Counted from the first letter of the stretch, positions 34,402 through 35,031 are shown. The stretch: DNA of 46,463 bases from Escherichia coli (GCF_003334255.1 NZ_QOWU01000044.1); one strand, 5' to 3'. The notes: generated from the sequence alone by a model not told the origin. Program-made: numbers and translations.

Positions 34402-35031
34402 ATGAAAAGCCTCTCCTATAAGCGGATCTATAAATCACAAGAATACCTGGCAACGTTGGGCACAATTGAATACCGATCATTGTTTGGCAGTTACAGCCTG
34501 ACCGTTGACGACACGGTGTTTGCGATGGTTTCTGATGGTGAGTTGTATCTTCGGGCTTGTGAGCAAAGTGCACAGTACTGTGTAAAACATCCGCCTGTCT
34601 GGCTGACATATAAAAAGTGTGGCCGATCCGTTACCCTCAATTACTATCGGGTTGATGAAAGTCTATGGCGAAATCAACTGAAGCTGGTGCGTCTGTCGAA
34701 ATATTCTCTCGATGCAGCGCTGAAAGAGAAAAGCACGCGCAATACCCGGGAAAGACTGAAAGATTTGCCCAATATGTCTTTTCATCTGGAAGCGATTCTC
34801 GGGGAGGTGGGGATTAAGGATGTACGGGCGTTACGTATACTTGGGGCAAAAATGTGTTGGTTGCGACTGCGGCAGCAAAACAGTCTGGTGACAGAAAAGA
34901 TTCTGTTTATGCTTGAAGGTGCCATTATCGGCATTCATGAAGCTGCGCTCCCGGTGGCACGCCGCCAGGAGCTTGCAGAATGGGCTGACTCTCTTACGCC
35001 GAAACAGGAGTTTCCTGCGGAACTTGAGTAA
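34402..35031 (+). CDS. sxy: Competence regulator Sxy/TfoX
   Basis: 209 aa, MKSLSYKRIYKSQEYLATLGTIEYRSLFGSYSL... Confidence 0.94.
   Translation: MKSLSYKRIYKSQEYLATLGTIEYRSLFGSYSLTVDDTVFAMVSDGELYLRACEQSAQYCVKHPPVWLTYKKCGRSVTLNYYRVDESLWRNQLKLVRLSKYSLDAALKEKSTRNTRERLKDLPNMSFHLEAILGEVGIKDVRALRILGAKMCWLRLRQQNSLVTEKILFMLEGAIIGIHEAALPVARRQELAEWADSLTPKQEFPAELE

Follow-up and report, generated by a model that had tools for sequence, protein, structure and literature searches.

The convergent overlap of sxy and yccS in Escherichia coli appears to be a neutral by-product of a missing spacer, and the end of sxy carries a conserved hairpin of the yccS-sense RNA

In Escherichia coli, the CRP-S coactivator gene sxy (tfoX) and yccS, which encodes a YccS-family putative transporter, run towards each other and share their 3' ends, raising the question of whether the overlap itself is a selected feature, whether it couples the expression of the two genes and how the two transcripts end. 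We examined the junction in a window of 46,463 nucleotides, the whole stretch of DNA analysed here, which is identical to positions 1125515-1171977 of strain E2865. The gene order around the junction is ompA-sulA-sxy><yccS-yccF-helD. On the plus strand, sxy occupies 34402..35031 (209 aa; stop codon TAA at 35029-35031), while yccS lies at 34994..37156 on the minus strand (720 aa) and ends in a TAA codon that reads as TTA on the plus strand at 34994-34996. The 38 bp common to both genes (34994..35031) comprise the last 12 sense codons and the stop codon of each, and the coordinates place codon position 1 of sxy opposite position 1 of yccS, 2 opposite 3, and 3 opposite 2. Upstream of yccS on the minus strand is yccF (37166..37612), which forms one operon with yccS (Conway 2014, PMC4161252).

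The 38-bp overlap reported by the first-pass annotation of this DNA is correct: RefSeq/PGAP gives identical coordinates for both genes in E2865, and in MG1655 sxy (1021138-1021767) and yccS (1021730-1023883) likewise overlap by 38 bp. Every one of the 5426 complete E. coli genomes has the junction, with both genes annotated over it in every record listed. Long convergent overlaps in databases are often misannotated 3' extensions (PMC2478687), and the same annotation had named a mis-assigned yccS stop codon as one of the results that would undo its claim. However, Sxy matches the Pfam domains TfoX_N (E = 2.7e-25) and TfoX_C (E = 6.7e-27), YccS matches the NCBIfam model TIGR01666 with 1262 bits against a cut-off of 471, and full-length orthologues of both genes are found in 80 species genomes; a search of NCBIfam found no family for Sxy, whose TfoX domains came from the Pfam search. 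Since both frames are confirmed by full-length homology, and the frames fix the stops, neither stop codon is mis-assigned. The overlap also falls below the 60-nt threshold for a long overlap in PMC2478687, and it is shared by every E. coli genome and by 75 of 79 species genomes. The pair thus consists of genuine open reading frames with common 3' nucleotides that are conserved in multiple species, and the chance that the overlap is an artefact of a wrong stop or frame is negligible. At the other end of yccS the start does differ between records (37145..37156), giving 720 aa in PGAP and 717 aa in MG1655 and a yccF-yccS spacer of 9 nt or 18 nt, respectively; the TIGR01666 family model begins only at residue 11 of YccS.

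Is the overlap special? We compared sxy loci from 80 species-level Enterobacteriaceae genomes, which were chosen via an alignment of Sxy and of which 79 could be scored, using Sxy W194 and the YccS motif LPE[IMV] (residues 699-702) as anchors. In all 79, yccS adjoins sxy and is convergent with it. The anchors are separated by 57-68 nt in 77 of the 79 genomes, the spacing being exactly 67 nt in 49 of them. The overlap, present in 75 as noted above, takes lengths of 4, 7, 11, 14, 16, 20, 23, 32, 35, 38, 41, 44, 47 or 80 nt, and both the identity and the position of the stop codons vary from genus to genus. In Kluyvera georgiana the two genes abut exactly, in K. intermedia they are 11 nt apart, and in two further genomes they are split by an insert, of 249 nt in Enterobacteriaceae bacterium UBA5654 (L048, 4625..4873) and of 2.3 kb in Superficieibacter electus (L050, 4616..6901). 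The smaller insert contains two long perfect palindromes, CCCCTGTATCCC..GGGATACAGGGG and CAGCGTTAAG..CTTAACGCTG. Distant relatives with 38-47% Sxy identity have the same synteny, with overlaps of 4 or 26 nt or gaps of 2 or 44 nt, and the tail-to-tail adjacency is kept across at least 20 genera.

The protein ends that are encoded by the overlap are unconserved on both sides. In Sxy (209 residues), the Pfam match to TfoX_C extends to residue 194, leaving 15 unconserved residues, and conservation in the Sxy alignment is gone past L198; in YccS (720 residues), the family model stops at residue 709, leaving 11. We modelled the conserved cores as lying 67 nt apart, with stop codons arising at the random frequency of 3/64 per codon, and obtained probabilities of about 0.72 for any overlap and about 0.52 for an overlap of at least 38 nt. 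Under this model the length of the E. coli overlap is at the level of chance once the spacer is so short, and is not special; what the genome comparison singles out as non-random and conserved is the tight spacing, without an intergenic region. The window holds eight convergent CDS pairs, of which three overlap: besides sxy/yccS with its 38 nt, these are zapC/ycbX (19756..19759) and yccX/tusE (43603..43606), each with 4 nt in common and each also in the ExcludonFinder list. That its length and stops drift freely and the protein tails are unconserved speaks against selection on the overlap as such. The comparison shows it, as far as sequences can, to be a neutral by-product of the missing spacer: each frame would run on through the spacer as an unconstrained tail to the first stop it meets, and the length of the overlap would drift accordingly.

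In this respect sxy/yccS resembles the convergent overlapping pairs described previously (Rogozin 2002; Pallejà 2008, PMC2478687), being likewise made up of bona fide opposite-strand genes with common 3' ends that read through to the next stop, are kept across species and overlap by less than 60 nt. We see no essential difference from these pairs and regard it as a typical member, in which the adjacency is kept while the length drifts between 0 and 80 nt. The palindrome CAGGAgttTCCTG (CAGGA-gtt-TCCTG, 35005..35017) inside the overlap was considered as a functional element and rejected, being Escherichia-specific and lacking conservation even in E. albertii; it is probably incidental. The junction is old in Enterobacteriaceae, ordinary and annotated before. 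The overlap was already known from standard annotation and as a catalogued convergent, transcriptionally overlapping pair, and as first submitted it adds nothing new. Its use is rather as a clean example of a convergent CDS overlap that looks like neutral read-through of a very short conserved spacer.

How, then, do the two transcripts end? A consensus scan of 34000-37800 found no canonical terminator, that is, a hairpin with a T-run, at or near the junction, and an Rfam scan of the whole window gave nothing at the junction. The sole Rfam match in the window is the PyrD leader RF02373 (97.9 bits, 17964..18037) upstream of pyrD. Since the genes share 38 bp, have no intergenic DNA and lack a canonical terminator, a full-length mRNA of either gene contains sequence antisense to the other. 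The earlier argument that each transcript is necessarily antisense to the other is therefore sound in its logic, and published RNA-seq agrees with it (PMC4161252, PMC12288877). The accompanying phrase 'no intervening terminator' stands for canonical terminators in our scan but overlooked a conserved stem-loop of yccS that lies in sxy codons 182-191.

This GC-rich stem-loop occupies 34947..34972 on the minus strand, with arms at 34947-34957 and 34962-34972 and a loop at 34958-34961. Read in the yccS sense, it starts 21 nt beyond the stop codon of yccS, and on the other strand it lies within the sxy CDS, 57 nt upstream of the sxy stop. The invariant DNA of the junction alignment, CTCCCGGCG-N6-CGCC(A/G)GGAG, is an inverted repeat with a stem of about 9-11 bp, and it encodes the most conserved peptide of TfoX_C (HEAALPxxRRQEL). 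Its conservation extends to synonymous sites. Of the sequences compared, 94% have CTC at Leu183, 99% CCG at Pro184, 90% CGC at Arg188 and 91% GAG at Glu190; when the 69 distinct sequences are counted, these codons are found in 63, 67, 61 and 60 of them, respectively. Neither CTC nor GAG is a preferred codon, and the two are complementary. Neighbouring codons vary, with Leu191 using six codons freely and Glu180 and Glu193 using GAA or GAG. Five of the ten columns with the lowest synonymous entropy in sxy, out of 94 conserved degenerate codon columns, fall within the 9-codon span of the hairpin, a clustering equalled by 25 of 20000 permutations, and this span is the lowest of 90 windows of five consecutive columns. 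Judged by codon choice, these data show that selection on synonymous sites holds the hairpin in sxy. A second cluster of low synonymous variation was seen in the 80 genomes at sxy codons 2-14 (34405..34443), including K2 AAA, S5 TCT, Y6 TAT, R8 CGG, Y10 TAT and E14 GAA, which might come from a 5' structure in the mRNA or from a requirement of translation initiation. A 5' constraint of this kind has been described for H. influenzae sxy.

To which strand does the structure belong? When a 10-bp helix was imposed on the 69 distinct sequences, 95.1% of the cells were paired in the minus-strand RNA compared to 86.4% in the plus strand, with 68 G·U cells on the minus strand and 8 on the plus strand. 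At one position of the helix the minus strand pairs in every one of the 69 sequences, as U·G, C-G or U-A, whereas 41 of the 69 have a C·A mismatch there on the plus strand. Four or five pairs have changed on both sides, as in Kluyvera intermedia (CTTCTGACG/CGTCAGGAG); the shuffle controls for this covariation take no account of phylogeny. The minus-strand hairpin is the more stable one in 70 of 80 sequences, with a mean of -19.8 compared to -17.5 kcal/mol. In E. coli the two strands fold about equally (minus -18.6, plus -18.1 kcal/mol) because the GTG codon of Val185 gives an A·C mismatch in the minus-strand stem. De novo folding of a 20-genus alignment of 194 columns with RNAalifold returned the hairpin as the only helix (11 pairs, -21.7 kcal/mol), and it is the minimum free energy structure in E. 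coli, Salmonella, Enterobacter, Kosakonia and Buttiauxella. Global fold z-scores of the 3' regions were modest for the minus strand (-1.8) and unremarkable for the plus strand (-0.14). Together with the synonymous sites above and the altered junctions and energy scan below, the pairing pattern and the de novo fold indicate a selected RNA structure on the yccS-sense strand.

In addition, the 120 nt that follow the yccS stop were scanned in 85 loci, and the best 44-nt hairpin of each was compared with 1020 control segments. The mean was -22.9 kcal/mol against -14.0 kcal/mol in the controls, and 85% of the loci lay below the 5th percentile of the controls. In three distant relatives in which the genes abut (L083, L085 and L088), the scan found no strong hairpin. 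Downstream of the sxy stop the mean was -15.0 kcal/mol, with 10% of the loci below the control 5th percentile and a value of -9.4 kcal/mol in E. coli; the conserved fold 3' of sxy in the alignment is negligible (-4.7 kcal/mol). Variation in the last 120 codons of yccS is ordinary, with no synonymous constraint found there. A further inverted repeat, at 35080-35131 and 70% complementary, was rejected as a candidate, because no plus-strand fold is conserved there and yccS codons 600-706 are free of synonymous constraint. A hairpin of sxy's own is seen only where an insert provides intergenic DNA, as in S. electus (L050), in which a canonical terminator, GGGCGGCGTCAGCCGCCC followed by CTTTATT, lies 22 nt past the sxy stop.

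Genomes in which the junction has been altered bear on the link between the hairpin and the end of yccS. The inverted repeat has decayed in the two genomes with an insert between the genes (L048 and L050), in Pluralibacter, and also in relatives that have an intergenic hairpin or no adjacent yccS, with the peptide largely kept. Replacement hairpins are found where the original is lost or where an insert or spacer intervenes (L048, L063, L084 and L090). In L048 and Pluralibacter a different stable hairpin sits beside the yccS stop, while in L050 the best hairpin 3' of yccS is weaker and not significant. In L084, whose Sxy is 43% identical, the equivalent sxy codons (approximately 4020..4052) contain a perfect hairpin of 13 bp, TCTGGCCAGCACCAGGAAGTGCTGGCCAGA, that is unrelated to the E. 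coli one; by this comparison, structure is kept there and sequence is replaced. In L090, where the genes are separated by a 44-nt gap, the hairpin is intergenic and there is none inside sxy. With no intergenic DNA to hold a terminator, the proposed 3' stem-loop of yccF-yccS is written into sxy codons 182-191, and this conserved RNA hairpin for the yccS message within the end of sxy is the new, if small, detail of the junction.

The class of RNA end to which the hairpin belongs can be narrowed by its surroundings. As in an intrinsic terminator, a GC-rich stem-loop follows soon after the stop (10-11 bp, approximately -18.6 kcal/mol, 21 nt away), but there is no U-rich tract 3' of the stem, the sequence there being GCAGCUUCAUGAAU in E. 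coli, as fixed by the HEAA codons opposite, and GCNGCUUCAUG in the consensus. Without a U-tract the hairpin is not a canonical intrinsic terminator. Steady-state 3' ends formed by Rho, in contrast, lie just past stable stem-loops without U-tracts, may fall inside downstream coding regions, are followed by an enrichment of C over G, and have loops that shield the RNA from PNPase and RNase II (Dar & Sorek 2018, PMC6061677). As a stable stem-loop the yccS hairpin fits that definition, since it is likewise GC-rich, lacks a U-tract and is near the stop and inside the downstream CDS; the RNA that follows it is richer in C than in G, though perhaps for reasons of coding. The 3' ends in that study were mapped, whereas the yccS 3' end given here is a prediction from sequence, and the yccS hairpin is unusually well conserved because the essential Sxy peptide on the other strand also constrains it. 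The C-rich, G-poor, rut-like stretch just downstream of the hairpin, the most extreme of its kind in the neighbourhood, lies at 34779..34884 on the minus strand and reaches a C/G ratio of 3.56 in a 78-nt window, among the top 0.03% of such windows in the whole analysed DNA; the median maximum across species is 2.17. This tract is also present in L048 and L050, where an insert parts yccS from sxy, and since it persists without an adjacent yccS it may be a side effect of coding for Sxy with G-rich codons. We have therefore downgraded it as independent proof of a rut site.

By analogy with these ends, the architecture of the hairpin most likely reflects a Rho-dependent, hairpin-protected 3' end of the yccF-yccS mRNA. 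The yccF promoter would drive a yccS transcript that ends within sxy: polymerase leaving yccS would read antisense into sxy and be released by Rho within a few hundred nucleotides, and 3' exonucleases would trim the yccFS RNA back to the hairpin, to about 34944-34947. In that case the antisense part of the stable yccFS mRNA, a 3' UTR of about 50 nt plus the 38-nt overlap, would cover approximately the last 88 nt of sxy. Transcripts of sxy, having no structure of their own, would run into yccS antisense, and Rho or polymerase collision would give them diffuse ends. We consider the whole of this, a neutral overlap together with a selected yccFS 3' hairpin and Rho-dependent release with trimming, to be the best explanation of the junction, with a probability of about 0.7. 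Published 3'-end data add little at this locus: Adams 2021, whose Term-seq and Rho tables were searched in full, lists no sxy, yccS or tfoX and no coordinate between 1,021,000 and 1,022,199, the supplements of SMRT-Cappable-seq and of a 3' stem-loop preprint gave no 3' end for either gene, and the main text of Conway 2014 gives no transcription unit coordinates for yccFS. A literature search for yccS with terminator, antisense or Rho found only the catalogue papers (Conway 2014 and ExcludonFinder).

Two other readings accept the hairpin and assign it a different role. Being almost a perfect palindrome, the hairpin can fold in either transcript, and it might act as a non-canonical intrinsic or bidirectional terminator that pauses polymerases and fixes the site of head-on collision between sxy and yccS transcription, rather than as a Rho-associated protective structure. 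SEnd-seq work by Ju et al. in 2019 reportedly found bidirectional intrinsic terminators between convergent genes. As in those terminators and the convergent pairs of Wang et al. 2022 (bioRxiv 10.1101/2022.10.23.513370), in which a nascent stem-loop is needed to position collisions, one palindromic hairpin is common to two converging units. The sxy hairpin differs in that it is inside the sxy CDS rather than between the stops, has no flanking A- or U-tracts, neither the U-tract on the minus strand nor the A-tract/U-tract pair of described bidirectional terminators, and has a G·U pattern that favours pairing on one strand only. Since it lies in translated sxy, 57 nt short of the stop, productive termination of sxy there is impossible, and we regard a terminator or collision site of this kind as unlikely, if a serious contender. 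It is more improbable still that the conservation at codons 182-191 serves sxy itself, through mRNA structure affecting translation or decay or through codon preference, or serves a DNA-binding protein, rather than yccS. The element does encode the most conserved TfoX_C peptide, the plus-strand fold in E. coli is nearly as stable as that of the minus strand, and CCG and CGC are preferred codons. However, CTC and GAG are non-preferred and yet 91-94% conserved and mutually complementary, the plus strand carries its C·A mismatch in 41 of 69 sequences just where the minus strand has G·U, and the repeat decays while the peptide is largely kept in L048, L050 and relatives with an intergenic hairpin or without an adjacent yccS, new hairpins arising beside the yccS stop instead.

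A third reading concerns regulation rather than the hairpin as such. Conway 2014 (PMC4161252) described the sxy and yccFS operons as converging and reported overlapping 3' ends for 276 of 370 convergent E. coli operons, and sxy-yccS is among the 165 convergent excludons in Table 1 of ExcludonFinder (Sanmartin et al. 2025, PMC12288877), which were seen in at least 50% of 58 MG1655 transcriptomes. The first-pass annotation suggested that the overlap could couple the expression of the two genes; in an excludon-type form of this idea, obligatory antisense overlap would make yccFS and sxy mutually inhibitory through head-on collisions and RNase III cleavage of the duplex, with the constitutive yccFS operon damping the weakly expressed sxy. 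The pair belongs to this published E. coli 'excludome', in which excludon pairs show higher synteny; its adjacency persists in at least 20 genera and in relatives whose Sxy identity is as low as 38%; no 3' structure belongs to sxy itself; and, according to PMC3330819, E. coli sxy is not known to be induced under any natural condition. The criterion of ExcludonFinder is, however, an overlap of transcript boundaries, which overlapping coding sequences satisfy trivially whenever both genes are expressed, so that the listing documents co-expression, not regulation, and is no functional evidence. Compared to the convergent excludons and overlapping operons of these two studies, both of which name sxy-yccS itself, the transcripts likewise overlap at their 3' ends and the proposed yccS 3'-end structure lies inside the transcription unit of the other gene, but the overlap here reaches both coding sequences rather than UTRs alone; mutually exclusive expression, through interference or RNase III, defines the excludon class, whereas sxy-yccS is listed by transcript overlap alone. 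A search for published reciprocal-expression, dsRNA or RNase III-dependence data on sxy-yccS found none. In addition, the length and sequence of the overlap drift freely, and a hairpin right after the yccS stop limits stable antisense overlap rather than promoting it: the conserved hairpin would, if anything, confine stable antisense to the last ~88 nt of sxy. Mutual inhibition of the two operons is accordingly doubtful in our view, and coupling of expression by the overlap is an unsupported hypothesis.

A one-sided version, in which yccFS transcription acts on sxy through collisions, the ~88-nt antisense RNA and RNase III and, together with exonucleolytic decay of the unprotected sxy RNA, keeps Sxy off, seems less probable again, and we put it forward as speculation. 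If true, such a brake would help explain the missing natural inducing condition for the E. coli competence genes, and its strength would be set by the hairpin.

The preferred reading, a neutral overlap with a selected yccFS 3' hairpin, carries some practical consequences. It cautions against reading regulation into overlaps of this type or into lists of excludons. In sxy, a regulator gene, synonymous sites preserve a stem-loop at which the mRNA from the opposite strand most likely ends, and recoding of sxy at codons 182-191 or a clean deletion of sxy could alter the stability of the yccFS mRNA. The hairpin also offers a testable handle on whether yccFS transcription restrains sxy, a poorly understood competence regulator.

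Finally, two features elsewhere in the window deserve a brief record. A prophage-like block, with a tyrosine integrase, a DUF4224 protein and an exonuclease, follows right after yccA at 45090..46463; since ARAGORN found no tRNA anywhere in the window, the integration site by yccA is not an intact tRNA on this side. The elf/ycb fimbrial chaperone gene ycbF (17186..17922) is annotated as a frameshifted pseudogene in this strain.
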